NCBI GenBank assembly: GCA_903813345.2
Contig: CAIIXF020000001.1
Span: forward strand, 22,196,001-22,260,000
Source of the DNA: Owenia fusiformis
Taxonomy: Eukaryota
Reading direction: 5' to 3'
DNA: 64,000 bases
Each line of letters opens with the position of its first letter. The first letter of the stretch is position 1. The notes under the pieces are model-generated. The model ran no database searches. It worked only from the letters and a program-made list of their open reading frames with translations, and was not told where the DNA came from. The position numbers were made by a program, and so were the translations under genes. This document shows, piece by piece, positions 17,901 to 54,000 of this stretch.

Positions 17901-20313
17901 TGATATTGGATAGCCGAGGACGATTTGAAAGGTAATTTTTTCTTTAAATATGTTTTAGCTGGTAAAAATGAAGATTGAATTGATCAATTTCAATTAGAAA
18001 TTCAGTTTTTGAATTGGTTTATAGAGTGACCAGATCAGCTTGACCTTGGAGTTTTAACATAGGCCATCAATTTCACTTCCAAATATGGAAGGTGCAAAAA
18101 TTGAGCTGTCAATCAAATATTGACCTGCACGGAAAATATTTAAATTTCACTAATTGTTCATCTGGCGTTTTCTTCTGCGAACCAGAGAATTGAAATTACT
18201 GAGCAACACTCAGAATGTAACTTATTTTTTGATGAATGTATATTTATTTTTTATCATATTTGTATATTATCACAGGTCAGTGTGACCTGTTTCAGCATTA
18301 ATGAGAAAATATTGAGATTATGTATTTCTCTCTAGCGTAGCTAGGGTGAGGCAAACAGACAAGGCGCTTGCCAACGCTCGTTTAACAGGTTTGGAAATAT
18401 TTTTCGCCTCGTCGCAGGATCTGGCCTCGTCGCTTTTTCTTCCTGGCTACGTCAATGCTTCTACATATGTAGCATAAAACGAAAGGAATCAAACTCCATT
18501 AACGAAACAATGTATCATCATCGCTTAAAATTAAAGATTGATTAAAACTTATTCTACAGTGTAGACTTGAATATATTATCATCAAGATAAAAACATTTCA
18601 TTCCCAAACACCTGACTTAACTCTCTGGATAGTCATGGTGATCGCTATACACGGGTTGTCATCGAAAAATTTGTCCAGCTTGATGGAGCATGCTCTTTTT
18701 CATAAAAACACTAAGAAAACTCTAGGATGAAGAAATAATTTAATTTAATTTCTTCATCCTAGGAAAACTTCACAAATTATTTTTAACTCATATGTTTCGT
18801 TATCCCAAAGGAAATTAACTACTCCATGCAATGAGTATATCATTTGCGGATAACATTCACTACTGTTTGAATAATGCTAGGCGTAAAAGTTATTGAAAAC
18901 GGCGCCAGAGTATATCATAGTCTGAAATATTTTTATGAAAAATATTTAATTTTTTTGTCCAGCTTGATAGAGCACTTTTTTATAAAAAAATAATCAATAT
19001 CTAATTCTCATTAATGCCTTCAGAGTTATGGTGCAAACATATATAAATATTATAATGTCACTACATCGTGCCATTTAAAAGTAAAACAAGAAATTGTACA
19101 TTTTAGAGTATGATACTCTGGCGCCATTCAGATCCATTTGAGTTGCTCATAGTAGGTTAATCCGGTAGCAGACAGCTTTTTGAGTTGCATTCGCGAATAT
19201 ATATTCTTATATTTTTTCGAAAATCTGAAAATTAAGTCTTCGACTTTAGGTCACAGGAATGAAGATGATCACATTTGCATGTGGTAGTTTTAGCCAATTC
19301 AACTACGAAGACTCAAAGGGCATCATTATATTTGAAGAACATAAACGAAAAACGCACTGTCTAAATCAGCCTACCCTTTGCATTCGTTCGACCTCACTTC
19401 TTAATTTTAAGAGAGCTCCGTCTTCAGGTACTGTAGTTCATAACTATGAATGTTCTAATACACCCCATGCAGACAGATCGCCTAAAATTACATTCGTAGG
19501 ATGTGAGACATTCACCAGGAAAGTAGAAACATTTTGTCACCCATGATGCAAATTAATAGTTTACTGCTTAATAAATGATGAATGACAGTCGTCATATTAA
19601 GTACTATAAGTATGAGAATAGCATACTGTCTTGATATTTCAAGGTAACTCGTTCGAAAATGATGACGGTTGAAATGACGATGTAAAGATAAGACCGCAAA
19701 AAATATTTGTAGATTTCTTTGAAAAACTAAGGAGTATACATCTCATATTGAAATTTTCAAAACGGAAAAACATGTATAAATAGTAAGGTGTGACGGTCCG
19801 AATCCCCCTGGTAGCATTAACATTAAGTCAAACATTTTAATATTTGAAACCCAACTATTATTCAAACGTATGATCGGACATAAGTATGATGTGTACTTCA
19901 ATACCATATTAATAAAGTAAAATAATACTTATGTCCGATCATAAGTTCGAATGATAGTTGTATTTCAAATATTAATTGTATGACATGTATTAGACCAATG
20001 TTAATGCTACCAGGGGGAATCTGACCAGCAGGCCTTACTTTTTATATATGTTTTTTCTGTTTTGAAAAATTCGATATGTGATGTATATTTCTTAGTTTTT
20101 CAAAGAAATCTACTAATATTTCATTACGGTTTTATCTTTACATCGTAATTTAATTTCGATCACCGCCATCACTTTTCGAACGAGTTACCTTGAAATATCA
20201 AGACGTCATGCTATTCTCAATCTCATACTTTTAGAAGTAACTGTCCTTGACCATTTATTAAGCAGTAACAAATTAATTTGCTTCATGGGTGACAAAATGT
20301 TTCTACTTTCCTG
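14946..20313. repeat. Head-to-tail tandem duplication, 2 x 2684 bp (14946-17629, 17630-20313)
   Basis: Constant 2684 offset (e.g. ORFs at 16575 and 19259); CTG microhomology at 14943, 17627 and 20311; at least six substitutions seen between the copies. Confidence 0.95.
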
Positions 20314-20374
20314 GTGAATGTCGAGTCTCGCAGCATACGAATGTAATTTTAGGCGATCTGTCTGCATAGGGTGT
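19460..20374. mobile_element. ~915-bp foldback (long imperfect palindrome) element; a right-truncated copy lies at 16776-17629
   Basis: The arms pair along almost their full length (e.g. GCAGACAGATCGCCTAAAATTACATTCG vs CGAATGTAATTTTAGGCGATCTGTCTGC; GATCGGACATAAGTAT vs ATACTTATGTCCGATC), centre near 19905. Confidence 0.85.
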
Positions 20375-30000: not shown

Positions 30001-33000
30001 GTTTATTAAAATGTTTCGTTTATTTACAGCCATGCTTTAGAGTCTTACACAGCTCTTCCATTCAACGAGCGTACTCCTCGTCCATTGGACCCAAAAGAAA
30101 GACCAGCATACCAGGGCAGTAATCCAATCAGTGACATATGGTCCAAACATGCACTGAGAATCGTTTCAAAGTATTTCAAGAGGTAATGTTCAAAATTAAC
30201 AGGAAATAATTATTTTTATGTGAGTCACTCACATGAAGTTTTGCAAAATATTTGCTGTAGAATATTGCGTGAGTTTCTCCACTGCTTTAAAACCATTCCT
30301 CACTCTTCAGGGAAAAGAATTTAAAGATCTTTTTAAAGGAGGTTCAACTTTATTTCTCAACACGAATTCCTCAAATGTATAGCTAAGAGAAAAAGGGGAC
30401 ATCCTAGAATATGTTTATCAATGATATTGTAAGGCATATTCATCATGTTATCATAATTTTTAAGGTAACATCAATTTAGTCGTACAATCATACTAAATTC
30501 AGTTCTGCTGTCAGTTTTTGGTTTCCTCTAGAAATTCCATTGTAGAGTAATAACAATCTAGCATTAATGAATTCAAACTTTAATGGTTGATTTCTTAAAA
30601 TGTGGCCATGCATGCGCATACAATAATATTTATATTGTTAGTTGTTTCTGAGATTTGGAAGCTTTTGGGGTAAGAAATTAACTAGAAAGCATTTTATTCA
30701 TGATTTATGCTGGCTGGGGATGTATTGTTTTAAGGATGCTTTTGTAATTACCTTACCATAGATGTATGAACATGCTCAGGCCTGGAACCAGGGGAGGGGG
30801 GGGGGGGTTTGCAGGGTTTGGGCGAATCCCCCCCTGGCCAAAATTTCTTTCAAAATCATGCAGTTTTCACCATTTTGAGCACTTCTCAAGTGATCTCAGC
30901 CATATTTGATCCAAAATTGACAAATGTGAACCCCCTTGAAATTTTTGAAAACTGAACCCCCCCCTTTGCAAATCCTGGCTATGGGCCTGATGTTTATGTA
31001 TAATGTGTGTTTCAGAGGTGTGTACAATGCAGATGATATGGAGGCCAGGTCTAACATGCATTTGGCCAGTACTATAGCTGGAATAGGCTTCGGTAATGCT
31101 GGAGTACATCTATGGTATGTCCTTGCACTGCTCGTGAAACGTTTTATCAATTAAATGGTAAAAAAATCTAAAATAAAATCCTAGTCCTGTATCATATCTG
31201 CCCCCTTCCCCAGTTATTACTTTTCTTCCAATAGTAGCATGAATGGGTGGATGCACAGGGGCTCTTGATTCATATCGGGATTCATATAAGCTATTATCAG
31301 GCCCGTAGCCAGGGGGGGGGGGGGGTTCGGGGGTTCGAGTTCCCCCCTGACCAAAATTTCTTTCAAAATCATGCCGTTTTTCACCATTCTGACGAGCGAT
31401 TTTTGGCCAAATTTACCAAAGTGAACCCCCCTAGAATTTTTCGGAAAAGTGAGCCCCCCTTGGAAAATTCTGGCTACGGGCCTGATTATGGTATATAGAA
31501 GGCCAGTGGAGATGAAAGGAAAGTTAATTGACTATTGGGAACATCTACTTATTTTATGGGAAAGCATCAAGGTCACTTTGGTAGATATGAATAACATTAA
31601 GCCTCATGGAAAGAAAAGCTTGTTTGTTTTTTGCAATTGCTTTAACATGATTTTTCTTTGAAATAAAAAAAAAGATAAAAGAAAGAGAGAGGAAACAAAA
31701 TTCAAAACAAAAATATGTACTGTCCTTCCATGAAACATTTTCACTGAGGTCAAATGTATTGGAAAAAATTATGTTATATGACCCAATTTTCTTACAGCCA
31801 GGCTGATATAGGTATCACATATTTTTGCTCTACGTCAAATTCATCTGGTAGAGCATAGGCCAATATATGAGTTTTGATACTTTTTGCAATGTATGAGTAA
31901 GATTAAGTGTCTTTGAGAAGGTTAATGCCACTATTTTAAAGGTCAAAATTCAAAACATAGTCTGATAGTAGATAGGTACATACACAGCCATTGATTTTCC
32001 TCACCTCACCTCAATCTTCTAGTATATTTCCATCCTCCTAGGCAGGTATCCAGAATCCGTACCTCCTTCTTCCCCCTGCTATAACCAATTTGGAGGCGCC
32101 CGATTAAACTGAATCACGTGATCTAATTATGCGCAATGACGCAGTGTTGTGACAGCCAATCAGATTGCGAGTTCTTAATCGGAGAAATGCTAACTGCTTA
32201 TCGCAGGGGGTAAAAAGAAAGAATATATTCTGGATTTTGAAGCCCTGTGATCGGAGGATGGTATATTTAAAGTAGGATGAGTATTGAAAATGCCTGAGAA
32301 TTGTGAGTAAAGTTAACTTGTGTTTCTTTTACAGTCATGGGCTTTCCTACCCTATTGCTGGAATGGTGAGGAGTTTCAAACCAGATGGATATGTAGCTGA
32401 CCATCCAACAGTGGTAAGTATTGTCATGGGGGGCTTTCAATTAGACTAGTTGAAAGCCCATGGTATTGTTTTAACATGTTAATGCCTTGTTAATATTATG
32501 TTGTTATAACCACAAAGATGGTCACACTAAGTTATTGCTTGAACTTTTTGTATAGGTGTGGTATATTGAAATCTAAAATAGTAATATGAAGCAATAACTC
32601 AAATTATTGTCAGATCGATTCTGACAAAGTTAAACATCTGGGAGACACATTATACACCATGCATAATTACATGTCGATCATATTACAATGCTCTTGACCA
32701 GTTATTTTTCTCACCATGTAAACCTGTATTTGTACAATAGAGAGGTTTCGCACAACGGGTTTGCTAAAACGTATCCGCATCCGTATCTCGTTACGTTTAC
32801 GGATACGTTATTCGAAAATTTTCGTTTCGCAGTACGTTTTTTTTAGCACGTAATCCACAAAACGTATCTCAAGCCGTGACCTTGACAATAACATTCATTT
32901 CCTGTGGAAGTAACACAACAGTTATATCTTCTCAAAAAGGTAAGATTTTGTTCACTCATGTCGTGTAATTTGGCAATATCGATTTATGTTATTTTGCCCC

Positions 33001-36000
33001 TCATATCATTTCGTGAACATAGAATAATAGTACATTCTGTCTCTAAACATGGGATAACATTGGAAGAAAAAACTCTGGATCATTTCCTGTGTCAAGAGTG
33101 AATATACTATAATCTCCCTGAATATATAGTCCCGGTGTGAAAGAAATTATGGTCCCCTGGGGATTATGGTCCCCTTTCCAAACGGCCCTTACTGGCCCCG
33201 ATTGTGTATAAAATAATAAGGGAAAGAGTTGTGATTAGGTCACTATATAAATCAATGGAGAGTAGGACCATAATTTGATAGGACCTCCTACCCTTTTACA
33301 CCGGGATATATAGTCCAAGGATGCATGTTACCAGACTATATTTTCTATGGTATACAATATAACTTCGAGGTATTTATACTGACGAACTATAGATACGTTG
33401 ACAGCAGTCCCATCCCCATTCAGTACCAATCCTAAATAGCATACCCCATTCAACCAGCTTTGCCTCTTTTTAAGGAGTGATATTCGATTGTTTGGGAATT
33501 CCTTGCTAAAATATGATATCCTGATCCAAATATCAATTATATTTTCAAGTAATATTCGATCTATATCATTGTAACCATGGGGTAATAGTAGTTAGCCTAA
33601 TTCACTATTTTATTTCATTCTAGTAGTGTGATCTTCGACAACTGTACATATGGCAGGCATTGACCCAGTCACCGCGGCCGCTATTATTGATGACAAGGAT
33701 GACGAGGAAACACTCCTCCTATATCACTTATTTGAGGAAGATAGGCGTGATGGTATTAACGCATTCAGAATAAATCTGGAAAGTCTATCAAATGAAGAGT
33801 GCAGTCTCTTGTTTCGATTTGAAAAAGATGATCTATTCAGGATATCTCAGGTCATGGAGTTACCAAACGTATTCACTGGTTATAACCGATGTTCGTGTAG
33901 TGGCATCGAGGGCTTGTGCCTTTTACTTCGCCGTCTTGTGTACCCAAATCGACTGTGGGACATCAATGGGATGTTTGGTATGGATCTGTCGACAACTTCG
34001 ATTTTGATAAACACAGTGAACAACTACGTGTATGAACATTTTGGACCTCTTTTAACAGAGTTTAACCAGCCATGGATGACCATTCCAGATTTACAACGAT
34101 ATGCTCGCGCGATTCAGGCTAAAGATGCCCCTCTTATAAACTGTTACGGTTTTATTGATGGGACTCCAAGACCATGTGCTCGTCCACAGGAAGGGCAGCG
34201 TCATTTCTACAGTGGGCATAAAAGGGAACACTGTCTTAAATTTCAGTCTATCATATTACCCAATGGCATTATTACAAATTTGTATGGGCCTGTTGAGGGG
34301 TCCCGGCACGATGCCTCAATGCTGCGTCGCAGTAATATCCTGGATGCACTTGAAACAAAAAGCCTGCCGAACGGGGAACCCATGTCGATTTATGGAGACC
34401 CCGCGTACCCCCGAACTCCCCATCTTATTACCCCATTTAGAGGACCCGATGTGACCCCTCAACAGGCCCAATTCAATAGAAGTATGAGTTCTGTGAGGGA
34501 AAGCGTTGAATGGGGTTTCGGAAAAATCATCAGGGAATTTGCTTTTTTGGACTTTAAAAAGAATCTCAAAATACTTTTATCTCCAATAGCTAAGTATTAC
34601 AAAAATGGAGCTTTTTTAACCAATGTGCATACATGCCTTTATGGTAGTCAAGTGAATACTTACTTTAACACTGAACCTCTGTTACTTGAATACTACATTC
34701 ATAGATGAACATGATTGTGTAACAAACCAAACATTTTGAGACTAAACATGAACAATCATAGAAAACTGTCAACTGTTAAAACAATTGATAATTAAACAAC
34801 TTTATTATTGCAAAAACACCATATCGCTGATTGGAATCGAAAAATCTGTCCGCTGTGGTGGAGCATGCTATTTTTCTAAAACACACCAAGAAAACTTCAC
34901 AATTTATATTTAACTCACATGTTTCATTATACCAAAGAAATTCACCTACTCCGTGCAATGAGATTAATCAGTAGCGGGTAACCTTAACTTCTGTTTGACG
35001 TCCAATGACGCTAGTAAAAGCTATTGGAAACGACAAAATCAAACTCTAAATGTATCATTTCTTATTAATGGCACGATATAGTGATACGATAATATTTCCA
35101 TATCTTCAGCATAACCCTGAAGGTATTAATGAGATCTGGATGTAATGGGTCGTTTTTATTTATTTTAATAAAAAATAATGTTAAATTATTGACCGCTATG
35201 GAAGAACAGTTTCAAATGTGAAGTACATTAAGATTCATAATATATCTTTTGAACTACACTTTAGAGAAAACGTATCAAACCTCCCTCCCAAAATCAAATC
35301 GTTCCTAAAGTGTAGCTGTAAAAGTAATATATTGGGAACTTTGATGCATCTCACATTTGCAACTAGTCCTCCATAGAGGACAAAAATCTAGACATCATTT
35401 TTCAATAGAACAAATTAAAAATACTAAAATTCATCTATACTAGATCTCTTAATACCCCCATAGTTAAGTTAAAACATATGCGATATTATCATGTCACTGT
35501 GTTCAGTGCAATTGAAAATTTAGAAAATAATTGGTACATTTTAGAGTATGATACTCTAGAGCTGTTTTCAATAGATTTTGCTCCTAGCGTTATTGTAGTT
35601 CAAACAAAAGTAAAGGTTACTTGCAAATGGTGTACCCATTGCACAGGGTAAGTTGAGGTTCTTTGGTATAACGAAGCATATGACTCAAAAAAATTGTGAC
35701 GTTTTCTTAGTGTTTTTATGAAAAATAACATGACACAACATAGCGGACAAATCTTTCGATCACAACCCGTGCTACATGTATAATGTATATGTATATGTAT
35801 AATTAAAATAAATGTTATATGCAAGTAAACAGCATTTTTATACGTAACAAAATTTAGAACAAGAGGAGCATTAGCAGTTAGCTAATTTAAATGATTGAGA
35901 TGATTGGTGATCAGTGCGTTTAAAGGAATGAGTCTTTTTAAAAGTAACATTTTGTACCTTCATCTTTTTGCGTTCATAATAATAAAATATGAATTTAACT

Positions 36001-39000
36001 TGCCATGAGGACAAATAAAACAAATAAAAAGAAGTAACTAAAACAGTACACATCAAACTGATGTTAAAGTCTCCATCTATGAGTATGTACGTCTAATCCT
36101 AATTTTCCATTCCAGAATATTTTACTGATAACATTGATCTGTAAGGCTTGTTGAATTAGACAACAAGTGCTATTAATTTTAAAGTAAACATCAAATCCGT
36201 ATGCACAAGATTTTTTACTTGTCAAAAGTGCTGCCGAAATAATCAATCGAGAAAAAATGTTTGAACTAAAGTAAGTACTGAAATGTGGCTATTTAGGATT
36301 AAAATTACAGACACGGACGTTTTAATGTCAGTATGCCCACATCATCAGTCTTTCTTGGGATTCATTGCGTTCCATTTTCTCTCTTCCAGTGCAAATTTCC
36401 TCTCCTCAAGTTCAATTTTCCTGGTGAGGTATTCCTCTAAGAAGTTACCTACAACACATAAAACAGAAACGTATGCATGTTATCCTATGTGATTAGATTT
36501 GGATAAAAAATCATTGAAACACTTCTTTTGAATTGTAAAGGATGAATAGTGTTTCATGATTGTGAAAGAAATTATGGTCCCCCAGGGATTATGGTCCCCT
36601 TTCCTAACGGCCCTTACTGGCCCTGATTGTGTACAAGATAATAAGGGAAAGAGTTGTAATTAGGTCACCATATAAATCAATGGAGAGTAGGACCATAATT
36701 TGATAGGACCTCCTACCCTTTTACACCGGCATGTGTTGTTCGTATATCATATTAATTTGATTAAATGCAGAACAATAAATACCCAGATTGTATAGATTTT
36801 TAAATAATTCTGTCATTCTGTTTGGGTCTTACCTCTTTTGCAGAGTCGTTTCTTAGAAGGGCTTGATTGAGGCGATTTCGTTTGTTTACCAAGGGTGTTC
36901 ATCGACTTCTCTAGAATTTCAGTCACTTTCTTTTGATCTTTTTCTTGATCTTCTTCCTTCTTCTTTTTTGTTTTTGTTCTTTCCATTTCCACATCTTCTT
37001 TTAGGGAAATCACTTCAGTCAACATTTGTGACATCTCGTCATATTCCTCTTCAGTACCAGATCTAAAAGCGTTAAGTTTAAGACGAGATAAATTTTCAGG
37101 CGCATTTATGAAAATACATGCTTGACCCTAATGTCTGCAAATGGAGAACGGTGGTCAAATTGACTCCTCTGTTTTAATGAGTTCTTTTATGCACGTTATT
37201 TTGTGAATCCCTCATTTTTAGCTTGAGCCGCACATAAATGACACATTTTAGCGTAGAAATCAGTTTGATTGAGGAAGATCATATTTATGATAATCGGAAT
37301 TTGATGCCAATGAACAGAAAGTCGATATAGTTGCCTTGTCCTAATACTGTGGAAAAAGCAAAGTGATCATTATTTATGGCGTGTCTGATAGACAGTCACT
37401 CAGCATATTGAATTTCCTTTCCCACATGCTTATTTCATGAAAATCAAACCCCCGATCAAGCCACTATTTACTATTTAAAGCATGAACTCGCGAGTCGCGT
37501 TTTTCCCGAATTTGAGAGATAACAGTTTTTCAAAAAACTGCTTGATGAATAGCTATTATTTTTGCACGTTCCTGAACATTTGTGCAACGATTTATCTGAT
37601 CATAATTTCAGATCTTTTTTCCCTCTCCCAATTTTTCAACTTCACCAATTCGATTTATATGCCGTTACTTGGTGGTTGGTTGGCTAAGTCATGGACCAAA
37701 AATATTCGGAATCTACCAAGTTAAGTATTAGTCTACTGCCGAACTGAAACACCGAGTGGCATTTGTAATACTATATTTGCAAATATGAATGGAAAATTGC
37801 TGACAATACAATTGCGTTCAATTGAATTTCAATTGAAAGTGCATAGCTGAGTTATACAAAAGCTTGACAGACGTTGATTTTTTGATTTATTTTAACAATA
37901 ATTGACTATTCTTTTAAGAATTATAGCATTTTGGCACCAAACAATTTTCCTTTCATAGAAAAAGCATCAAAACAGAATGTCAAAAATACCCTTAAGTCAA
38001 GTTGTTCTCGATTTTGTTGACCTACTTTTTGGAGAGGTAATTGAATAAGGTTTACAATTCCAACACGATTGAAATTAGACAAGTAGTTTTCAATCATCAG
38101 GGTGAGGTTTATCCAGGTTCTAAGCAATTTCGATATTTTTGATATATTCGATATTTAAGAAATATCTTCGAATGTACCCCTTAGGGCTAGGCACAAAAGC
38201 TTTCAAACCCCTCACTCCCTTCGGTCGTTCAGGGTATAGAGAACGTTTGTGCCTAGCCCTGCGGGGTATATTCGTCGATATAACAACACCTGCTCTGAGG
38301 TCTATATTACTTCGACCATGAAAATTCACCAACATTTTTCAAATATTCATTGAAATTTCCGCCATTACTACGGCCCGCCGTTATGAGGTCACACATTACT
38401 CGTATTAACAGGGGTACTGTTGGCGAATATACCCCGGGTGAAATGTTGACGTCATAAAAGGTGTGAATACAGTCATGTTCGAATTCAAGATACTGACCGG
38501 TTAATTCGAAGAACTTTTGATGTGTGTTCAGAGTACCTGTTGAGTAAATGAATGTTTGAGTTTTGGGTTGGGTCGCCACAAATTTTGATGATTTCATTAT
38601 GTCACTTTGTTAATTCTGGGCACTGTTTAAATTAACAAATGCAACTTCCAAACTTTTCAAATGTTTTATAGAGATGTGAGGAGTGGCCCGCTCCCCCTAG
38701 AAAATGTTACTCTTTTGAGATGCTATTTGGTGATTTCTGGGTACGTTCAAAGTGTATGAGTCAATAAAATTGAATTGAGTCAAAGAGGTTCAGAAGGTGA
38801 GCTAGGGTGGGGTGCCAGAGGGGATCGGAAGCAATAGGTTGTCCCCCAGAAACATTGACCATATGAAGGTGCTATTTGATGATATCTGGGCACTTTAAAA
38901 GTGTCTGAGACAATAAATGGAATTCAGAATTGTTCTAATTGTTTTGGTGGGATGTGTGGGGTGGCCCACTACGTTAGAACATTTTACGATTTTAATATGC

Positions 39001-42000
39001 TATTTGGTGCTTTCTGGGCACTTTATTGTTTGTCCCCAATAAATATTGACCATATCAAGGTGCTATTGATGTTAATTCTTGGCATTGAACAAATGCAACT
39101 TCCAAGCTTTTAAATTGTTTTATGGGGACGTGATTAGTGGCCCGCTCCCCCTAGAAAATTGTACACTTTTGAGATGCTATTTGGTGCTTTCTGAGCACTG
39201 TCAAAGTGTATGAGTCAATAAAATGATCTTTTATTGCGGGATGCCAGAGAGTGAGGTGGGGTGCCAGATGGGAGCTAGGGGTTGTCTCCAAGAAACATTG
39301 ACCATATCAAGGTGCTATTAAATGGTGTCTGTGAACATTAAACGTATCTGAGAAAAAAACATAAAATAAATTCAAAATTTTCAATTGTTTTGTATATTGG
39401 TCCCCCTAGAAAAAGTTACAATTTTAAAATGCTATCTTGTGCTTTCTTGGAACTTTCAAAGTGTATGATTCAATAAGACACATTGACTTTTTTATGGGGG
39501 GGGGGGTGTAAATTAGGGAACCAGGGGGGGAGTAGACTATATCCTATTTAGTCTGAATAATATTCAGACTATACATATAGTATGTTAAAATTTGTTAACA
39601 AAAAATATTTGTTTACATAGGAAGTGATATTCAAAATGGCTATTCAAAATGGCGGGAGTGAATTAATTTGCATATTTGTTACTTCAACTAGCTTTATTTC
39701 CACCTAATATGTTGTGTTATTATTGCATTTAATTAATTGTACCTTACTACTTAATTGAAGTGATAAAATGTTGTTTTTTTAACTAATGCTTCCTCAAATT
39801 GATAATTTTTTGCAGAAAATTTCACTGCAATTTCCACAGGACAGTAGTACATCATAACAGACTGACTTCTATAGTCAGTCTGTTAGATACATACTAAGAG
39901 GTGGAGGTGAGGTGGGGGTGCTAGAGAGGAAGCAAGTGTTAAATGCTGACTATAGTAAGGAGCTATTTGATGATGTCTGGGCACTTTAAAAGTGTCTGAG
40001 ACAATGTATAAAATAACTTCAATTGTTTTGTGGGGGTGTGAGGGTGGCCCACTCCCTCTAGAAAAGTTTACAATTTCTTTATCGGGGGGGGGGGTGCTAG
40101 TCTATATCCAATAGACTGAATGCGAATTTTCATTCCAAATTTCAAAAAAAATTAAGACTGAATAAGATGTTGTCTAGGGGGTATGCGGTCGCATCCATAG
40201 AACCCCCCCCCCCCATCTGACGGCCCTGCCAAAGACAGCTTAGGTGTAACATGCTAATTGTGCATGGGTTTTTGATATACACAGATGATGGCATTAATTA
40301 TCGTTAGGTATTCAGTGATTGCCTTGTCTGATAAGAAGACGTGTATGGCCAATCATACAATTGCTAACTTGATATTGATATAATTGATATAATTACATGT
40401 ACTTATTACCTAAATGACCTACAAGAATATTGAAACTTTAAAGATTAAATCCGGGAGATAAGATCATAAAACGTTTCGTCTTACTTGGATTTCCGCAATC
40501 TGTCCTCCCTCTTGAACGATTTGATGAGGAGTTCCATCCTCTCACGAATAGTTCGTAAACTATCAACGTGGAGACTTTTACACACGTCGAGGCGAACAGC
40601 CTCCCAATTGGGAGGATTCTCCCATGGATTTGCCAGGGAAGAACGCACTAAGACTAAGTCGTCTTAGAGTCTAAAGTAAACACGTTTTTTGGCGCTTTCT
40701 TGATCTTGAGACATGATGTTCAGCAGTCCACGCGCTATGGATGAATATTGAAGGCTCATTGTGCTGTTTATAAGTACGATTTGCAGGCCACTCACTCATA
40801 ATCAAATTAGTTGACTAATAAGCCTGGTTCCTTTCATCAAAATTAGCACGATATACACTAAACATTATGTAGGTCACTTAAATTTAACATTTAGGGGAAA
40901 TTGATATACATTTGAAGGACAAAAATAGATGCGGAAACAACTACGCACAAAAGTGTCAACTTTACGTACTTTCGGTATTGCAGTCGATAACACAAACGTA
41001 TTGAGTCCACATTTGCTCCATCTATGCGTTACGGATTTTGATACGGGCAGCTGAAACGTTGTGCGAAGCAACTACACTGTGATTATTGTAATACCATTCC
41101 ACACAGTGTAAAATGAATTGAACATACCATTTGGAAAACTCGATTTATGTCAAACAATAAACAAATCCATTCACCAAATCTAAGTCATATATTGAACAAC
41201 ACAATGTGTTTGTTCATACAGTGATACTTTTAGAACTAAAATCAATGTAATTGTATGATAAAATGGGATGCGTAAATGACCAACGTACAAAAGCCTCATT
41301 TTTCGTGTTTTCCGTATTGCTGCACGTATAAATTGGACGGACTGCGCATAAATCTGGTAAATACGTTACGGATACGGATACGTTGAGCTAAAAAACGTTG
41401 TGCGAAACCTCTCTACTATATTTAACCAGTAAAACGTATTGTTATTGCTGAAACAAGTGTTGGTATATGAATATCTACACCCATCAGTGTCCCATGCCCA
41501 TATTTGCTGGAAAATACTTCCATTCCAAAGTAGGAAAACCCATTCTCAATGTAAAATGGCCACAAAGCACGTCCTTCTATGATATCCGGCTCTTCCATGA
41601 AGCCACATTCATTGTTAGGTATGAGGAAACTAGCTGTAAAAAAGCCTCCATCTTTTGGAATTGTTCCATTCCATTTTCCTACAATGAGTAGTAAGATTCA
41701 TTAATAATTAGTGTATGGAATATACTGGGAGGTATAAATACACATATGCAAATATTGTCTAATCTGTTATCATAAGCTGTCTGTCCAGGTGATAACTAAA
41801 ATACTGTTTGACAGTTTTGATTCAAATTTTATAGGCTAATGCCTTATATGTGTAAGACATCTGCTTAGAAAGAATTTACAATATGGCTGCTCAAGTCAAA
41901 ATGGACACCATTTTTCTTATCCAACCAAATGAAGGAATATAGAGAAGCTGTCCATCCGTCTGTTCGTCTATCTGTCCGGCTGATAACTTAAATACCAGTT

Positions 42001-45000
42001 CTCGAATTTGATTCCAGTTTTATAGGCTTATGCCTTAAGAGTGTAAAACATCTGGTCAAGAAGGAATTTTCAGCATGACTGCTCAATTCAAAATGTTTTT
42101 TTTTGTAAAAAATGTAATCTTTGACTTTGGTGTTGTCTAAGGACAAAGGAACTTTGCTCAAGAAGAGAATTTCAAGATGGCCTATGAATTTCTAAATGGC
42201 CACCATTTTTTATAAAAGAAATAATCTTTGATAACTCAAATACCAGTTGACAGATTAGGTTCAAATTTTATATGCTGATACTTAGAGACAAAAGAGCTTT
42301 GCTTTTCCAAGGTAGCCACTGGATTTCAAAATAGGTGCCATTTTCGTAAAGAACGTAACAATTGATAACTCAAATACCAGTGGACGGATACCCATTAACA
42401 AAGGAGCTCTGTTCAAGAAGAATTTTTTTAAGATTGCCACTATTTATCAAAACATGTTTTGTTCGGTGGGATTTGCTACTCTGTGGAGTTGCTGTTTTCT
42501 AGTTTGATGGCTTTACCTATCAATGTTATGGGTTTTTTGGCTAGTGCTCCAAATCCAATTTCTGTACAATATGCATTCTTGTAATATTTCACTCGACGAT
42601 GTGGCGTTGTCTCCGTCACTGCCCTTAGCTTAGTTTTTGAGATAAATCCTAAGAATGTATAATCTCCCAAATCTACAGGTTGACCTTGGTACAACTGCTC
42701 ATCCGTCAAACTGCTTACATCAATGCCATACTCTTTGAGATATTCTACACATTCTCTTCCTGAAATTTAGTAACTCAACTTGAATAAGAATTATGATTGC
42801 ATGGGAGAGTTGGGGTCATACCAGGTTAGATGACAGGGGAGACTAACTAGATAATGGCAAGATTTCATTGAATATAGACAAATTATGTGCTATTTACAAG
42901 ACCAAAGTTAAATATTGATGAAAATCAAGATTTTAGAGGGGGTAATATTCTTAAAAGAGTAACAGGGCTGTCAACTTGGGACCACCTAATATGAGTGACT
43001 TCAAAATGTTGGACACCTAAGTCCAAATCTGAACACTTTTGTCCAAATTTTGAACACCTTTGGCCAACTTTTAAACACCTTTGGCCAAAGTTTGAGCACC
43101 TTTGCCAAACTTTGAACACCTCAAATTTTTCGCGCTCGCTACGCTCGCGTTCTCGTCAACGGGGGGGGGGGGGAGGGACGAAAAATTTTCAATGAACATG
43201 CGTGACACATACGGGATTCGCGTGACAAATCCGAACAAATTGCGTTCGGTTTTTTCCGACGTTCGTATTTTTACCGTATCGTAAACATATTTCGAAAAAA
43301 TATTTTTGCGTGACAATTGCCAGGTAAAATGCGTATTTTGCGTGACATTTTCTGTCACGCAAAAAAAACTGGCGTGACTTCAAATTCTTCAGCAAATGCG
43401 TGACAAATACGCAAATTGCGGGACAGTTGACAGGCCTGGAGTAATGCATACGAATTTTCTGGGAGTAACATTTGACAGTAAATTAAAATGGAATGAGCAC
43501 ATAAATAAGGTAACACATAAAATATCAAAAAGTATTGGTATTCTGGGAAAGATTAAATATAAATTGAATAGAAAAACTATGATTACAGAGCTGTCAAGTG
43601 TCCCGCGAATGGCGGGATTATCCCGCGAATTTGATCAAAATTTGGCTAATTCGCGTGTCCCGCAATGTCCCGCGAAGTCCCGCAAATGTCGGCTTTGACC
43701 TCCGCGAATTTTCAAAATTGTAACAATCCCCGAGCCTAAGTAATTGTGATTATCTTGTGATATACAGTGTAAGAAGCTAAAGGGTACACCCCAGTTGTCA
43801 GAAACCCATTACTCCGAAAAATATAGGCCTAGTCATAATTTACCAGAGAAAGGGGGACGTACCAAGTTAAGCTTACGCCAGTTTCATGCCATGTATTTGG
43901 CCAAATTAATGGGATGGACGCATTCTGATGTTCATAGATATCTCTCTCTCTCTCACTTAGAATTGCGCCCATTACATGGTGCTACTAGAATGGCAGGAAC
44001 GGGGGATTTATTTTATATTGTGATCCTAAAAGCGGTTATTAAAACACAATATATATTACCGAACAGTTTATCTTAACTTCTTCAATCTCTTTTTTGTAGG
44101 CAAAATAAAATGAAACATTTTGAAACAGATAAAATAAGTTAACGCATAGAACTTTAAAAATAAAACAGTATACAATATTACGTTGTCAAAATATTTCGTC
44201 GCATTCAATTTCTTAGTCTCTGTCTCTTATCAAATCGAAAAAGAACAAAACATTCTAAACCTAATCACTTGGGATTTATTTTCGGCCTTCGTTCTTCTCC
44301 TAAACTGTATTTGCTTGACAATAATCAGAGAAAGTGCGTATTAGTATTTTGCGTGGCATATTGTTCTGTCACGCAAACAAACGGGTGTGACTTCGATTTC
44401 TTGTCTGTCTGAGGACGTATTGGGAACGAGGTAGAATTAAAGAATTTTATGAACGAGTCACGCAAGGTACTAGAACTAGTAAAGTAATTTATTGGATAAG
44501 TTAATTTCTAAAGGATCTGGATAAAATATGTTTCAAAACTTTGTGAACACTACATAACTACATTAGGCAGATATAGTATCTTGATATATTTCGCTATCAT
44601 GCGTTTCAAATACGTTCCTAAAACTATGAAGACGTTAGGTGAGAAATATTGCTATTGTACGTTCGAAAAGTATTTGGTTGTATTTTCTAGTTATCAGGTT
44701 ACCCATGAACTTTCGTAGTAGAATCAGATAACAGATTTTTCGAAAACCCGTCTCGTGCTAAGAGTGTAAAAACTTGTATTAACATGCTCAAAAGTGCCAA
44801 TGTGCACATCAATGTCAAGCTAAATCAATGTTGTGTCTAAAACAGGTACCTGATCTACTCAAAACAGCTTGTCATTCACGTATACACGCTTAGCAAACAC
44901 GGCGAAATGACCTGAATCTTGGAATTTCGTTCGAGAGCTAGTAATGTTTGCTCCGGTCTTCGTCATAAGTGTTCATCAGACTTCACGCATGCGCAGGAGA

Positions 45001-48000
45001 AAAACCATCAACCAATAACGTTTATAAATCAATTTTGCGCATGCGCCTTACAACGGTAAAGAAATTCGTATTTATAAACGAACCTGTTTGAGATAACCCG
45101 ATATCAGTCGGAGAAATCTGACGATCTACGAAACTCACTTCAAAAAATCAAATGCGGACTGACGGCGTATTCTACTATGTTTGGATCTAAGATTTTCAGT
45201 ATAGATAGAGTCTTTTATGATCTTTCGAATGAGGTAAGTCTCTAGTTCGAAAGACAATCGTATCAACTTGAACAAAAGTTGAGTTTTGACGAAAAATTGT
45301 AACATGCGCAGAAGTCCCATTTTCGTTGTACCATATTGTCTGGTTTGGCTATTTCTTGAAGACTAACATATACTTTTATTAGTTCCAAAGAAACCCCCTG
45401 GATGAACATTACGGTATTTCAGCCGATATTCCTCAAAATGGTGCATCTTAAAAATCTATAAGTGGGACTCCCTTTATAGAAGCTTTGAACTGAATTTACA
45501 CTTCTTAATGCTGAAATTGATAGTTTATTCATACATTTTAAGAAAATAGGTATGTCAAAGAATATGTTAAGCCAAATGTTGCCTTTATAGCTATGAAAAA
45601 GTAAAAGAATTTGATTTTTCTCTCTACAGGCCTTGTTGCCCCTTTAATAATATTTCTATGTGTATTGTGTGGAATTGTGTTGACGTTTACTTAAGTTAAG
45701 TGCATTATATTTGATAAATCAGTATCTGAAAGTTTGATTTGAGTACTTTTACATTAAGCCCCAATCACGCAAATCCCTTGAATGTCCTGCGACATCCCGC
45801 AAATTTAGGTGGATGTTTCGCCAATCCTGCAAATTTAGGGCACTTTGTCTAAAAAAGATTGCCCCTCTATGAAGTCTTTGGTGGTTACCCTGTTAACTGT
45901 CCCGCAATTAGCGTGTTTGTCCCTCGAAAGTTCCCGCGAAATCCTGCGAATTTGATCGAAATTCGACCTATTAGCGCAATCACGCAAATTCCTTAAATGT
46001 CCCGCAAAATCCCGCGAATTTAGGCTGATGTCCCGCAAAATCCCGCGAATTTTTGGCACTGGGTCTAAAAAATCTGTCCCGCGAGAAAATCTTTGGGGGT
46101 TGACAGTACTGTGATTACCATTTATAATTCACTTATATTGTCACAATTGAACTATTGCAACATGGGGTAATGCATGTAAAACATTTTTGAATAAGTTGCT
46201 TTTGTTACAAAAACATGCAGTGAGAATAATCACAAATTCTGACTTTTTAGCACATAGCCCATTAATCGTACAAATGGGATTGGGGGGATTAGGCGATTTC
46301 TGCAAGAAAACACAACAAAGGAGGAGGGAAAGTAGCGCAACAGCTTCCGGACAGTCATATGTTAGATTTTGGCTATTTTCTGAGGATTTAAACAGGTGCA
46401 TATGTTTGACCCAATGCATTATCTCCAGGAAAAGCACTCATAGAAATGATGAAATAATTTTGACTTTGAGACAGGGAAGATGCAAACAACCCACCCACAT
46501 GTTTTTCTGAAATGTTTTCCTGATTTTCGACCCCTTCCACCCCTGCTTTTTCAAATTCTTTTTGCAAAAATGTTGCAAAAATCAAAATGTTGCATTTGGA
46601 CACACAATTAAACCCTTCAAGAGAATAAGTAACTCCTTCAGGGGTTTTAAAGATATCCATTATGGGTGACCAAAATTAGATGAAAGCAATGGATCGCATG
46701 CATTTTCCCTATATTGTTTTCCAATTTATCAAAGAGGAGTTACTTATTCCTTTACAGGGGTTAACTGTGTCTGAAAATGCAACATTTTGATGCAACAAAA
46801 ATTGAAAAAGCAGGGGTGGAAGGGGTTGAAAATCAGGACAACATTTTAGAAAAAAATTGTGGGTGCATCTTCCCTGTCTCAAAGTCAAAATTATTTCATC
46901 ATCTCTATTAGTGCTTTTCCTGGAGATAATGCATTGGCCTAACATATGCACCTGTTTAAATCCTCAGAAAATAGCCAAAATCCAACATATGACTGTCCCA
47001 AATCTGTTGCGATACTTTGCCTCCTCCTTTGGAAGATTTATTTTTTCAAGAGAAAATTTACAACTGAATTGCCAAATAAATAGCAAAATATGTTAGGCCA
47101 TCTAGTAATTTTCATCATCACCAACGTGCAAAAGTCAATGTTTTTGCTATAAATCGGGCAACAATGGTCTACACGTCACACGACCTGTAATAAATAGGTA
47201 TAAGGGACATTAACGTTATTATCACAATAGTAATGACATTGCTCACTTTTTAAAGTTAGCTTCCATGCGTTATACAAAAAATAATCGAAATAAATTAATA
47301 TGGGATGGAGGGGGGATGGAATGGAGGGGGAATAATGTGTATATAAGACATGATAAGACATGCTACTTGAATTTATTCTTATGACTCCAAATGTTCCCAT
47401 TTTTCATTCTCCAGAGATATAATACTAGTATCCAGTTTCTTACTGGGGTACTGAGTTTAGTTTTTTCAAATACACGAGTTCTTGTGAATTTGTTCCATCG
47501 TAAAGACATATAAATCCCCCCTCCATCCCATATTAATTTATTGCGATTATTTTTTGTATTGCCAAATAAATAGGCGCAGTGCATGGCAAAATATGTTCGG
47601 TCATCTAGTATTTTTTTTGAACTGATACCCTTCTAAGATATGAGGTCTATTAAAAAAGGCGCATTATCATCACCAACGTGCAAAAGTCAATGTTTTTGAT
47701 ATAAATCAGGCAACAATGGTCTACACGACCTGTAATAAATATTATTAACATACATCATCCACATGGTACACAGCCTCATACACTCACCTTTTTTAACAAT
47801 TTCTGATCTCGATTTGACTCCAAATAATTTCCAGGTTTTATGCAAGACCCTTGGGGCGGCAGATAACTCTGAAGGATCCCCATCTGATAGAAATGATAAT
47901 GTCGTCTCTGTAGAATTTCCTTCTTGCATCGCTTCCCTCTTGCATATATTGCATTTTGAGGAATCACCAAATTTTACAAAACTGATGAGGAGCAAAAAGA

Positions 48001-51000
48001 AAATGATACTTTGTAACGAATACATGATTTCTTATCAGCCCTTTTTCTATGTATGTCTTAAAAGATGTTAGTATGGTCATGTTTAACATGAAATGTTAAT
48101 AAATTGACTGTTGAGAAAAATTGTTAAAGTGTAGCAGAAATCATATAGAGTGTGCATTTTGCAAGAGTCAGTAATCATGCAGGGACTAAATGAATAGGAC
48201 CAACCAATATTTGATCCATTTTGGTATGAGAGGACAGCTCAGACACTGGCAGCCTAAATTCAAAGTCCAAGGATAGACAATCACACAAATATATAAATTA
48301 TCCACAATTCATTGAGTTTTGAGTTTAAATTTTTTCACGCATTGCAAGAGATTGTGTACATTATTCCTTAAATTATTTTTACAAGGAAACGTTTTTGTAA
48401 GGGTTTTCATAAGGTTTTCTCATTTGACATTTTGACCTCCAAAAGTACCTGTCTTGCTATTCCTCATTTAACTATTTATAGGTTTTCACACATTTGCCAG
48501 TTGATTTCACTAAATCTAAAATAATCACACACTCCCCTCTTAATTCATATGGACCCTGAAATGTAACATTGTACATGTGTAGTACATGGGTAACTGTTTA
48601 GTATAGTATACTGTCTAAAGTTTAACAATTCGAGCTGGATGTATTTACTCATTGACTTATTTTTAATAACATGACTTTTAACATCAGTAAACTGATGTGG
48701 CCTAGTAGTTTATAGGGTCATGGTCAAAATTGCAAAAAGAAGTAAAAAGCATGGAGCAATTACTCAGATGCGAGTAGGTAGTCACCAGTTTCGCCACCAG
48801 GTGGCTGATTCGGGGGAATTAACATGGCAGGGTATTACAAAATTCCCTTTAACTTGAATATGCATCAGTTTTAGTGGTTCACTTTTCATATTACCTTAAT
48901 GTATCTGATAGTTATACAAATTAAAATATGTCCAGTAAAAGAAAATATTATCTACCCAACACAAGAAAAGATATTTCACTTTTTGTGGTTTTACAACATT
49001 GGGTCTATGGGGAATCTCCCCGACCTAGAAGTCACATTTTCAAACAAAATTAAATTTTCAAAGTTGATAAACTCTTTTCAAAACCATGCACACTTCTAAA
49101 AGTAATTTTACATGTAGATTCCAAATATGACATTAGTTTGACTGAATTGAGATTTTTTAATGACGTAAATCAAGATTATTTCTACTCGCATCTGGGATAT
49201 TGGAGCAGTGTTTGGACCTGGAGCAGTGTTTCACCATTATACATTTTTGAGAAAATTAAGATTTTCACTGTACTTTTAATATTATACTTGGATAGTTTGA
49301 AACAAAATTTTCTTGTATTTAGTGAAAATGTGAAAGTATGTCGTTTGACTATGTATATCCCTTTTTAGATGGACTCATCTGAAATGAACACTTTGGTCAG
49401 TATAGCTATTTTTCTGGAACACTTTAAGTTGAGAATTTAGCTAAACAAACAAAAAGAAGGTGATGTATAGTATATACAGCAGTAATCAAATATGCTTTAT
49501 AAATGTATAGTCTATTATGATATATTTAAAAGAAAATATAAATGACTGTTTGATAAAAATGTATTGTATTGTACATACGCTTGCCATATCAATCTCTGTA
49601 TTATTTGTATATATCACTGAGCAGAATTTCAATGTCAATTACTGTTACATGTATACGAAGTTCGGTAGGGATATAGTTAAGCTCTCTGTCTGTCCATCAG
49701 TCCTTCTGTTTGTCAGTCTGTCCAGATGGATTTGCTTCATAATAATTGAAATATATATATATACATTGTATTGGTATAGGTTTTCGCAAAAAAATTTTTT
49801 CACGATGGCGAGAATATTTGGCAACAATCTAAGTTTTTCATTTTTAAACCAAAGTAATAAATATTTTTGCTTGAAATTTTGATAGTGTACAGGATTTGTT
49901 GTTGATTTTGAAATCTTTCTGAAGTAAAGCTTTATTATACTCAAATGAAAGGCAATTTTGAGTAGATTGCAAATATCGTATCATTTTTCTGAATCGGGCC
50001 TTGTAAAATTCAAAATGACCGCTTTATGTGGGATTTCGCAGTAATTTCCGGGTTATTTCAATGTATGACTACAGTATATGCAGGCCTGTCAACTGTCCCG
50101 CAATTTGCGTATTTTTCACGCATTTGCTGAAGAATTTGAAGTCACGCCAGTTATTTTTGCGTGACAGAAAATGCCACGCAAATACGCATTTTACCTGGTA
50201 ATTGTCAAGCAAAAATATTTCTGTAGAAATTTTTTTAAAAAAGATTGTCTACACAGCAAAAATACGAACGACGGGAAAAAAACGTACGCATTTCGTTCGG
50301 ACTTTTCACGCGAATTACGGATATGTCACGCATTCCGTTCGAAATTGTTCGTACCTACCCCCCCCCCGTTGATGGATGTTTGAAACGCGAGCGTAGCGAG
50401 CGCGAAAAATTTGAGGTGTTCAAAATTTGGCAAGATGTAATAAAATTGAAACCAAGGTGTTCAAAATTTGGATCAAGGTGTTCAGATTTGGACCAAGGTG
50501 TCCACATTTTGAGGGGAGGTGTTCAACATTTCCAAGTCACTCATGTTAGGTGTTCCCAAGTTGACAGGCCTGGTATATGTTATACTTAAATTGAAGGAAT
50601 TTTAGAATAGATCACAATTATGGTATTGTTTTCCTTATTCTTGCTTCAGAAAATTTAAAATGGCTGCCAAGCAAGAATCCACTATTACTTGGAGATCTGT
50701 CTAAACTATGACTACATTATACTATAATAGATCTCAAATATTTTATTGTCTATGATTTGTATGAAACTCCTAATAAAAATGGTCAAAACCAGATATGACG
50801 TCATAGCTACTTCCGGTACTGGTACCAAATGCTTAAATTGGAAATTCTGATATATCTCTAATGTATGATTTTTAATATCTGCCAATTAAATCAAGGGTAC
50901 AGTAGATGGTACATGTATATATTACATTACTAATCTAATATGTAACCTACCTATTAAAAGTAGGTTGGGTAGCAAAAGGTTGACCTAAATAATGAGGTGG

Positions 51001-54000
51001 AAACATGCAATACCTTAGACTTCAATGTGAGTAATATATCATCAATAAACAACAGTTCAAGGTTCATTGATTTTTATTCATAAGTCCTCCAAGGCAAAAT
51101 ATTCTCGCTGCCTTGATTGATGACTAAACTTAAATTTGTACAATGTATACTTCGTTAATCATCCTAATGGAGAACATTCAATCAAATTGAAATACATTTA
51201 ATTTGAACTATACATTTATATATTAACTTTATGCCACATTGATGATCTTTTTGATAAAGCTACACTTGAAGCACAATTTGGATTATCAAAATCCTAAGCC
51301 GAAATGAATGAATTTTATATTTCAAGAGATAAAAGTGTGCATTCTGAGTGAAAATGTCAGGTGCATTTTGAAGAAGGTGGGTTAAACATGCCTTATGAGC
51401 AGATAATCCAATTGATCTTGATATTATTCTATGCATTTTTATTGAAGACTTTACACTGGTCTTATAAAAAACCTCTTGTTTACAGCTGTCTGAAATCTAT
51501 TGCCATAACTTTGGTGGCCTTTTCATCTTGTATGATGCTGTCTGTTTACAACCTAATGGTCTGTCTGTTTTACAACCTAATGGTCTGTCTGTTTTACAAC
51601 CTAATGATGCTGTCTGTTTTACAACCTAATGGTCTGTCTGTTTTACAACCTAATGATGCTGTCTGTTTACAACCTAATGGTCTGTCTGTTTTACAACCTA
51701 ATGATGCTGTCTGTTTTACAACATAATGGTCTGTCTGTTTTACAACCTAATGATGCTGTCTGTTTTACAACCTAATGGTCTGTCTGTTTTACAACCTAAT
51801 GATGCTGTCTGTTTTACAACCTAATGGTCTGTCTGTTTTACAACCTAATGATGCTGTCTGTTTTACAACCTAATGGTCTGTCTGTTTTACAACCTAATGA
51901 TGCTGTCTGTTTACAACCTAATGGTCTGTCTGTTTTACAACCTAATGATGCTGTCTGTTTTACAACCTAATGGTCTGTCTGTTTTACAACCTAATGATGC
52001 TGTCTGTTTTACAACCTAATGGTCTGTCTGTTTTACAACCTAATGATGCTGTCTGTTTTACAACCTAATGGTCTGTCTGTTTTACAACCTAATGATGCTG
52101 TCTGTTTTACAACCTAATGGTCTGTCTGTTTTACAACCTAATGATGCTGTCTGTTTTACAACCTAATGGTCTGTCTGTTTTACAACCTAATGATGCTGTC
52201 TGTTTTACAACCTAATGGTCTGTCTGTTTTACAACCTAATGATGCTGTCTGTTTTACAACCTAATGGTCTGTCTGTTTTACAACCTAATGATGCTGTCTG
52301 TTTTACAACCTAATGGTCTGTCTGTTTTACAACCTAATGGTCTGTCTGTTTACAGCCTCATGGTCTGTCTGTTGTGATCACGTCCCCTCAAGTGTTTGAC
52401 TTCACTGCCCCTGCCTGCCCAGAGAGACATCTCGAAGGAGCTGAATTATTAGGTATTATATTACAATTCCTTCATATATTTAGTGACATAAGCTCTTTTG
52501 TTGGACTACAAATAAAACATGTTTATGTCTGTGATTAAAATTCAAGTGCCACACAAATTGTAACAATGTCAGTCTTTTCCTCACCTGCTATTGTCAAATA
52601 TAAAGCCATCTTAATCTGAGAATGATGCCCCTTGCTAATGGAGATTGAGTGTTTATTTGACTGTACATGCACATGTAGGTGCTGATATCACTAATGCTAA
52701 GAGGGCAGATGCTGGTAAGATCCTTGCTGATGTAATGAGGGGTTACATGCATGACATGAAGATAGAAGACGGACTGAAGCCATTGGGATATACAACAGAT
52801 GACATCCCTGCCATGGTAGAGGCAGTTAAACCACAGGTTATTGTGATTTACTCATTCATTATAAAGTTTATTCTAAATGTATGAATAATAGTATCCTTGT
52901 TTGTTGGATAATTTATTTTTGCTATTCATTTATTTACCTTAGATAAGATTTGAAAAATGATAGAAATTGTAATTGAAAGCCCATGATTATTGTAATGTAA
53001 AAGGTGTCTGAGCAGAAAAATAAAATTAATGGAATAAACTTAGTAGTTTCAGGAATTTAGAAAATAATTATTATGGAAAGTGGCCCTTTAAATGCATACA
53101 ATTTGTATATACAGGGTGGTCCAACCCCCCTAGCCAATATTCCTGATAAATATTTATTTTTTAACAAACACACCAACAATGATATATCACTTTAAAGGTA
53201 ATTTAATTTGCAATAAGATGATATACATCTATAATACGTATATATCTTTTTTTTAAATATTATCTTTAAAGTGATGTATCATTGTTGGTGTGTTTGTTAA
53301 AAATAAATATATCAGGAATATTCGTAACGGGTGGCTTTTTGGCCCACCCTGTAATTACCCTGATATGGACATTATAGGCGGTATTTGAATTGTCTTTTTC
53401 CTAACACCTGTACACCTCCCAAAACTGCGAAAGTGATAGCAGAAAAACTGCAAAATACAATTTTTCAAAAATAGTTGTAAATGTTTTGGAAACTAAAGTT
53501 AATTATCATGAAATGACAATTGACAGTATTAAATGTGTTAACCACACTGCGAACATTATCAGGATTACTTGTCCATGTGTTTATCCCACTAAACATTTAG
53601 AGTGTCACGGGTACATGTGTTTACCACACTGTGCATATGGACATTTACAGTTAAACATTGTTTAGCCAGCTGTGAAAATTTATGGTATTACATATGCTTA
53701 CCATACTGGGAATGTTTAAAGTATTACACGAATTAACCCCACCCTGAACATTTAGAGTATCACACTATCACATGCACATGTGTTTACCCCACTGAGCGTA
53801 TGAACATTTACAGTATTTCATCACTTAGCTCACTGTGAAAATTTACGGTATTACATATGTTTATCCCACTGGGAATGTTTAAAGTATAGAAAGGTTACTC
53901 CACCCTGAACATTTAGAGTATCACACTAGCTATCACATGCACATGTATTTACTCCACTGTGTGTTTAAACATTTACAGTATTACATCACTTACATGTAGC

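Follow-up and report, generated by a model that had tools for sequence, protein, structure and literature searches.

The stretch examined here comprises 64,000 nucleotides (nts) of the Owenia fusiformis genome (assembly GCA_903813345.2, contig CAIIXF020000001.1, positions 22,196,001 to 22,260,000 of the forward strand); it is called the window below, and all positions refer to it. The feature under study is a three-exon protein-coding gene on the minus strand (41422-48025, or up to 48467 in the public model described below), which lies entirely within a 19,942-nt intron (32414-52355) of a plus-strand Fe-ADH (ADHFE1-like) gene. A sequence-only reading of the window had proposed a hidden, functional and lineage-restricted gene for a secreted protein. 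The gene structure it gave proved exact in every element: three exons, two phase-1 GT-AG introns, a frame of 245 amino acids, five cysteines (residues 25, 28, 83, 144 and 185) and two sequons (NST37 and NGT164). When the exons were joined by script, the resulting frame was 738 nts long (divisible by 3), with 245 codons and a single terminal stop. The elements of the nested gene are as follows:

48025-47788, minus strand: coding exon 1, with codons 1-79 and the first base of codon 80 (translation of the scripted join). It encodes the signal-peptide-like N-terminus (about residues 1-22, nts 48025-47960), a CxxC motif (C25, C28) and sequon NST37; barrel strand 1 (TLSFLSDGD) and the first helix are assigned to it from a paralog model.
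47787-42760, minus strand: intron 1, 5028 nts, GT..AG, phase 1, with multi-copy repeats throughout.
42759-42517, minus strand: coding exon 2, from the rest of codon 80 to the first base of codon 161, with the predicted helical insert and a long beta2-beta3 hairpin carrying the conserved LRxVTE and KYYKN motifs.
42516-41679, minus strand: intron 2, 838 nts, GT..AG, phase 1.
41678-41422, minus strand: coding exon 3, from the rest of codon 161 to codon 245, acceptor TTGTAG, stop codon TAA at 41424-41422. It encodes sequon NGT164, predicted barrel strands 4-8, the conserved Cys185 (NNEC) and the EEPDII and SxKYGHG motifs.

The start codon at 48025 has an A at position -3 and an in-frame TAA 9 nts upstream, and exon 1 is followed by GTGAGT; exon 2 is bordered by TTTCAG on its upstream side and GTAAAG on its downstream side. 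A direct repeat (41054-41085 and 41393-41424; 75% identity over 32 nts, with a visibly longer match on the minus strand) lies directly against the stop codon. The 3' flank of exon 3 also shows multi-copy read depth, so that the 3' untranslated region of the nested gene probably extends into repeat sequence.

The gene is not hidden, as had been claimed, because a partial public model, CAH1773695.1 (P0006; O. fusiformis, 201 amino acids, flagged partial), already uses both junctions. Its residues 24-201 are identical to window residues 16-193, and this 178-residue identity spans both exon junctions; exon 2 itself is 100% identical to residues 88-170 of the public model. The two models part at their ends. 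CAH1773695.1 breaks off inside exon 3, after window residue 193, without a stop codon. Its first 23 residues are encoded by two small upstream exons, from which the leader splices to an AG inside exon 1, so that the exon portion starts at 47981 and both ATG 48025 and the hydrophobic N-terminus are skipped. These alternative 5' exons, both with GT-AG introns, are:

48467-48449, minus strand: first leader exon of CAH1773695.1, from its ATG.
48253-48205, minus strand: second leader exon of CAH1773695.1.

The 23-residue leader has no counterpart among the Owenia paralogs described below. One of them (P0004) aligns from Met1 of exon 1 with 73% identity over 81 columns, and another (P0005) ends in the same FTG-stop as the window protein; at the level of sequence, these closest paralogs support the start at ATG 48025 and the stop TAA over the ends of the deposited model. 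The published O. fusiformis annotation is described as a combination of transcript assemblies (Mikado), Augustus and PASA (PMC9977687). As CAH1773695.1 ends in mid-exon without a stop codon, it looks transcript-derived rather than ab initio, and we infer that it derives from a truncated transcript. The full-length model given here supplies the signal-peptide-like start and the true stop, both of which are paralog-supported and missing from the deposited model.

A search for paralogs, which the sequence-only reading had called for, yielded 13 further Owenia gene models (P0004, P0005, P0007-P0013 and P0016-P0019) that align with the window protein over three exons at 35-76% identity (E 1e-33 to 1e-140); their local alignments jointly span window residues 1-245. 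Within the window itself, tblastn with P0004, P0005 and P0006 found no copy besides the locus. The family thus has at least 14 Owenia gene models including the window locus, on 8 contigs of 32-62 Mb. The individual exons gave the same picture. The protein search with exon 3 returned three matches, all annotated as 'unnamed protein product [Owenia fusiformis]', and exon 3 alone matched P0004 and P0005 with E-values of 9.5e-37 and 3.6e-33 (77% and 69% identity, respectively). A HMMER search with exon 2 against 1.84 billion cluster representatives (E ≤0.001) gave 11 proteins, nine of them from Owenia (best E 6e-68), and profile searches of 5.8 billion proteins with alignments A1 and A2 gave 9 and 10 proteins, all from Owenia. 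The Owenia relatives (among them CAH1798901.1, CAH1781337.1, CAH1784135.1, CAH1790493.1, CAH1790516.1 and CAH1802103.1) are uncharacterised proteins that share a length of about 250 amino acids and the hydrophobic N-terminus. Given the identity of the public model across both junctions and the alignment of 13 paralogs over three exons, the gene is far beyond chance. It is a genuine three-exon protein-coding gene of O. fusiformis.

The family shares the motifs N-x-T, TWK, GREF, G-x-D-x-S-x-LTDxQL, LRxVTE, YY[KR]N, GxWxGT, EC, EEPDI and SxKYGxG. The window copy keeps every one of them, together with both conserved cysteines, in variants that include N-S-T, TWKLF, GREC (F replaced by C) and SSKYGHG. 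The Thr of the first sequon is the sole nearly invariant column in the whole-family alignments. In a maximum-likelihood tree of 14 rows, in which P0008 was represented by its C-terminal part only and P0006 was omitted because it represents this locus, the window copy clusters with P0005 (support 89) and P0004 (support 99). Its terminal branch is short (0.15 vs. a median of 0.33), and the copy therefore does not appear to be decaying or accelerated. Two of the paralog models have an unusual structure. P0004 contains the exon-2-encoded segment twice in tandem (residues ~78-157 and 158-236), which reflects either a duplicated exon or two gene copies joined in a single model. P0008 (672 amino acids) combines an N-terminal part labelled 'SCP domain-containing' by UniRef with a family barrel without its own exon-1 part, and is either a true fusion or a merger of neighbouring genes.

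Outside Owenia, no credible relative was found. A Pfam-A hmmscan (E up to 10) assigned no family to the three exons, P0005 or P0006. For P0004 it gave matches to MOV-10_N (E 0.051) and UPF0175 (E 0.25), which were rejected as unrelated and far below cut-off. Two proteins matched by exon 2 were also rejected as relatives: a titin-like frog protein of 7296 amino acids (P0014, E 4.6e-5), which aligns only with query residues 10-50, and an unnamed protein of 399 amino acids (P0015, E 9.5e-4), which aligns only with query residues 4-24. As both share only the short G-I-D-x-x-x-L-T-D-x-Q helix motif, the resemblance was judged to be at motif level and not homology. P0015 (source label Logan) consists of about ten repeats of a helix pair with the motif K-A-K-x-x-G-I-D-T-x-G-L-T-D-K-Q, resembling the G-I-D-x-S-x-L-T-D-E-Q helix of the family. 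Pattern scans with alignment A4 over 185,579 prokaryote species (one genome each) and 241 million metagenome records produced 252 and 226 matches, none of which was confirmed by tblastn as a relative. A protein atlas gave no usable feature match for P0005 and P0009, and the structural neighbours it lists for P0009 were rejected (TM <0.4) on account of a poor atlas model (predicted local distance difference test (pLDDT) score 0.37). The literature searched on lineage-specific, secreted and tube-gland proteins of O. fusiformis and on dirigent-type barrels in animals contained nothing on this family. Hence the earlier statements that the protein belongs to no named family and is lineage-restricted both held: Pfam finds no family, and all credible relatives come from O. 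fusiformis within the searches made. As far as these searches reach, the family is probably restricted to this species.

The structure of the protein was approached through its paralogs. AlphaFold2 modelled P0005, which is 71% identical to the window protein, with a pLDDT of 86 and a predicted template modelling (pTM) score of 0.83; the alignment behind this model had 11 rows, window exons 1 and 3 among them. P0013, a divergent paralog (35% identity to the window protein), reached a pLDDT of 78 and a pTM of 0.74. Both models share one topology, namely strand 1, three helices and then seven more long strands. The family fold is thus confidently predicted to be an antiparallel beta-barrel of eight strands, in which an insert of three helices separates strands 1 and 2. 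In the predicted barrel, exon 1 contributes strand 1, exon 2 the helical insert and strands 2-3, and exon 3 strands 4-8; as the three exons build one predicted domain, the splice model receives independent support. The C-terminal half, described earlier simply as aromatic and Gly-rich, is not merely so, as it forms most of this barrel. The proposed check by AlphaFold, run on P0005 and P0013, gave a confident barrel; Foldseek against the PDB returned no acceptable match (best E 0.057, TM <0.25; rejected).

The protein probably enters the secretory pathway. The signal-peptide-like N-terminus noticed earlier corresponds to a clear hydropathy peak, an 11-residue stretch from residue 7 (residues 7-17) with a mean Kyte-Doolittle value of 3.34 vs. 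at most 1.48 elsewhere, and G-D-S follows the hydrophobic core at residues 20-22. The stretch Met1-F15 can be aligned with P0004 and is similar to the hydrophobic N-termini seen in the remaining full models. Nine of the ten paralog models that have an N-terminus start with a hydrophobic segment of varying sequence, the exception being P0005, which has a later start; it is thus the character of this region, and not its sequence, that is common to the family. The family-conserved cysteines are C28 and C185. A signal peptide cleaved near G20-S23 would deliver the protein to the secretory pathway, where the family-conserved N37 sequon may be N-glycosylated and C28 and C185 may form a disulfide. 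The mature protein would then act outside the cell as a small-ligand-binding barrel, possibly carrying or sequestering its ligand as calycins do, with a dirigent-like template as the less likely role. The candidate ligand site would consist of conserved polar residues in strand 2 (LRxVTE) and in the EEPDI loop.

Comparison with known barrels bears on this proposal. Lipocalins, avidins and other calycins are secreted eight-stranded up-and-down barrels that carry small ligands, and they offer the functional analogy we favour; the Pfam search gave no match to the lipocalin profile. Dirigent proteins assemble as trimers and have stereoselective phenoxy-radical coupling activity. Plant dirigent proteins and allene oxide cyclase are eight-stranded barrels (PDB 8th2, 7r5z, 5lal and 1z8k). 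The Dirigent Pfam profile did not match the three exons, P0004, P0005 or P0006, and there was likewise no Pfam match to Allene_ox_cyc; the best PDB sequence-profile matches were phage portal and collar proteins (E 0.28 and 1.2), which were rejected as unrelated. The bacterial and fungal beta-barrel pericyclases (AbnU 7dvi, PyrI4 7dvk, Cyc15 8of7, PloI4 7x80 and AbmU 6ymn) and the DUF3224/DUF3237-type barrels have no sequence similarity to the Owenia family and are cytoplasmic biosynthetic enzymes, whereas the Owenia protein looks secreted. A catalytic or templating barrel, dirigent-like or pericyclase-like, that steers small-molecule coupling or cyclisation outside the cell is a bolder reading, which we consider improbable. 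A more far-reaching form of this idea, which we offer as a long shot, is that the family might be an Owenia animal counterpart of the dirigent, allene oxide cyclase and pericyclase barrels. Its genes, at least 14 in number, would then encode secreted, glycosylated templating proteins and would have arisen in the oweniid lineage, either de novo or by a transfer too old to trace by sequence; the proteins would guide small phenolics or lipids through coupling or cyclisation outside the cell, for example in the hardening of the tube lining or cuticle, or towards a defensive or signalling metabolite.

On the whole, we favour the reading of the locus as a genuine antisense nested gene for a secreted, small-ligand-binding barrel of an Owenia-restricted family, and hold it to be probable with appreciable room for doubt. 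A number of observations weigh against it, among them those on expression. In three raw RNA-seq runs labelled O. fusiformis (X13-X15; 6-12% of reads sampled, region 41200-48700), exon 3 had a read depth of 0 throughout (bin 41451-41701), as did the part of exon 1 with the ATG (bin 47977-48227). The remainder of exon 1 (bin 47726-47976) reached no more than 0.19, and values in the bin with the 5' end of exon 2 (42706-42956) were 0-0.24. The junctions 47788/42759 and 42517/41678, which were to be checked by RNA-seq, were absent among the 15 joints listed of 85. The earlier label 'functional' is not supported by these runs, which give essentially no exon reads; transcription of the gene in them is very low at best. 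The high depth in bin 42455-42705 is due to a repeat of ~45 nts in intron 2 (42454-42498), next to the exon 2 donor. Hundreds of strand-biased reads on it continue into unrelated sequence on both sides (loose ends; direct repeats D1 and D4); the segment is a short repeat that also occurs in abundant transcripts of other genomic loci. The paper cited above for the annotation (PMC9977687) states that expression of species-specific O. fusiformis genes is generally higher in juveniles; such a bias fits a low signal in arbitrary samples and is uninformative on the nested gene itself. In addition, no AATAAA was found on the minus strand within 1.7 kb past the stop. Run X1, which is DNA-like in that introns and exons are both covered (exon contigs at a single-copy depth of 3.9-10.9, introns at depths in the thousands), contains a variant haplotype with I27R, E75D, G186D and M188I and three silent changes in exons 1 and 3. 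These 4 replacement vs. 3 silent codon changes give no sign of purifying selection. R27, D186 and I188 are the residues of P0004 at the same positions, and no frame-breaking variant was seen in the exons among 12 of 14 indels listed for this run. Finally, the putative secretion is based on hydropathy and on the paralogs, and the odd number of cysteines (five) includes C83 and C144, which are not family-conserved.

The scarcity of exon reads, the absence of a canonical poly(A) signal nearby, the partial state of the public model and the ratio of replacement to silent changes would all suit a silent or dying paralog, i.e., an intact-looking copy that is barely or no longer transcribed and is stranded in the ADHFE1 intron. 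We regard this as unlikely, since the 245-codon frame is unbroken, all four splice sites have canonical sequences, no family motif has been lost and the terminal branch is among the shorter ones of the tree; moreover, the mid-exon end of the public model suggests a transcript origin, and only 6-12% of the three RNA libraries was sampled. The deposited model raises a different objection. As the only model of the locus in public data, it has other 5' exons and no signal peptide, and its two leader exons and internal acceptor are all GT-AG, so that the true product might be an intracellular isoform from ATG 48467. Its 23-residue N-terminus lacks a paralog counterpart, however, while Met1-F15 aligns with P0004 and resembles other hydrophobic N-termini; from general knowledge, the conserved sequon and cysteine pair would make sense only in the secretory pathway, and we think an intracellular product rather doubtful. 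Chance open frames or a gene-prediction artefact might be suspected in the AT-rich region at 38-52 kb, which holds 35 open frames of 70-120 codons. Yet this explanation is next to impossible and already effectively refuted by the homology to 13 gene models over three exons, by exon boundaries that match continuous paralog sequence and by a confident predicted fold that spans all three exons.

The host gene and the remaining features of the window complete the picture. Pfam Fe-ADH or ADH_Fe_C was found on four of the eight host open reading frames (ORFs) tested (28.1-31.2 kb), and the four ORFs with no match are short exons in which the protein sequence carries on. The host exons that flank the intron, and two structures within intron 1 of the nested gene, are:

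32335-32413, plus strand: host exon upstream of the intron, donor GTAAGT at 32414; no Pfam match on its own.
52356-52452, plus strand: host exon downstream of the intron, acceptor AG at 52354-52355; the protein sense continues, with no Pfam match for this exon on its own.
46316-47031, in intron 1: foldback element, a nested long hairpin with arms of 57-96 nts that are 84-97% complementary.
47272-47559, in intron 1: inverted pair with 46-nt arms.

The antisense nesting in an ADHFE1 intron was therefore correctly recognised, as all exons lie within the plus-strand intron of a Pfam-supported host. The repeats require more caution. Long interspersed nuclear element (LINE) and miniature inverted-repeat transposable element (MITE) insertions had been placed in the introns of the nested gene, and read depth and hairpins do show that repeats fill these introns. 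The interval 46319-47028 is skipped by reads and contigs that originate elsewhere, a pattern expected if an older repeat had received a foldback or MITE-like insertion. The LINE identity of the two plus-strand ORFs in intron 1 (43378-43698 and 46151-46510) found no support in Pfam, where neither had a match, and both are called repeats by read depth only. The insertions do spare the exons, but to argue selection from this is circular: a disrupted exon could not have been recognised as one, and the argument adds no evidence.

Elsewhere in the host intron, an intact plus-strand ORF of 358 codons (33632-34705) carries a Harbinger/PIF-type DDE_Tnp_4 transposase domain (E 8.3e-26) and may be a recently active DNA transposon. 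A tandem array of repeated coding frames just upstream of host exon 52356 (51350-52020, plus strand) looks like a minisatellite. Upstream of the Fe-ADH gene, a plus-strand series of ORFs occurs twice, at ~14868-17600 and 17609-20320, with a spacing of ~2684 nts (14990/17674, 15360/18044 and 16566/19250), which points to a tandem duplication of ~2.7 kb. Further upstream still, plus-strand ORFs at 6323-11400 (e.g., 7075-7353, with ..GYEIHGFENIPDEGPALIIYYHGALPVDYYY..) resemble exons of an acyltransferase (TMEM68-like) gene; the one ORF tested had no Pfam match (E up to 0.01).

The locus itself is ordinary, as animal genomes commonly contain both antisense genes nested in long introns and secreted families confined to one species, and it was already partly public. 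The novelty lies in the family-level description and in the fold class: at least 14 unnamed Owenia models are recognised as one family with shared motifs, and the confident fold prediction assigns this animal orphan family to the barrel class that includes dirigent proteins, allene oxide cyclase and Diels-Alderases. If the resemblance between these barrels reflects function, the family would give an initial clue to small-molecule chemistry by templating in an annelid, as well as a tractable case of a taxonomically restricted family that has gained a well-packed fold.

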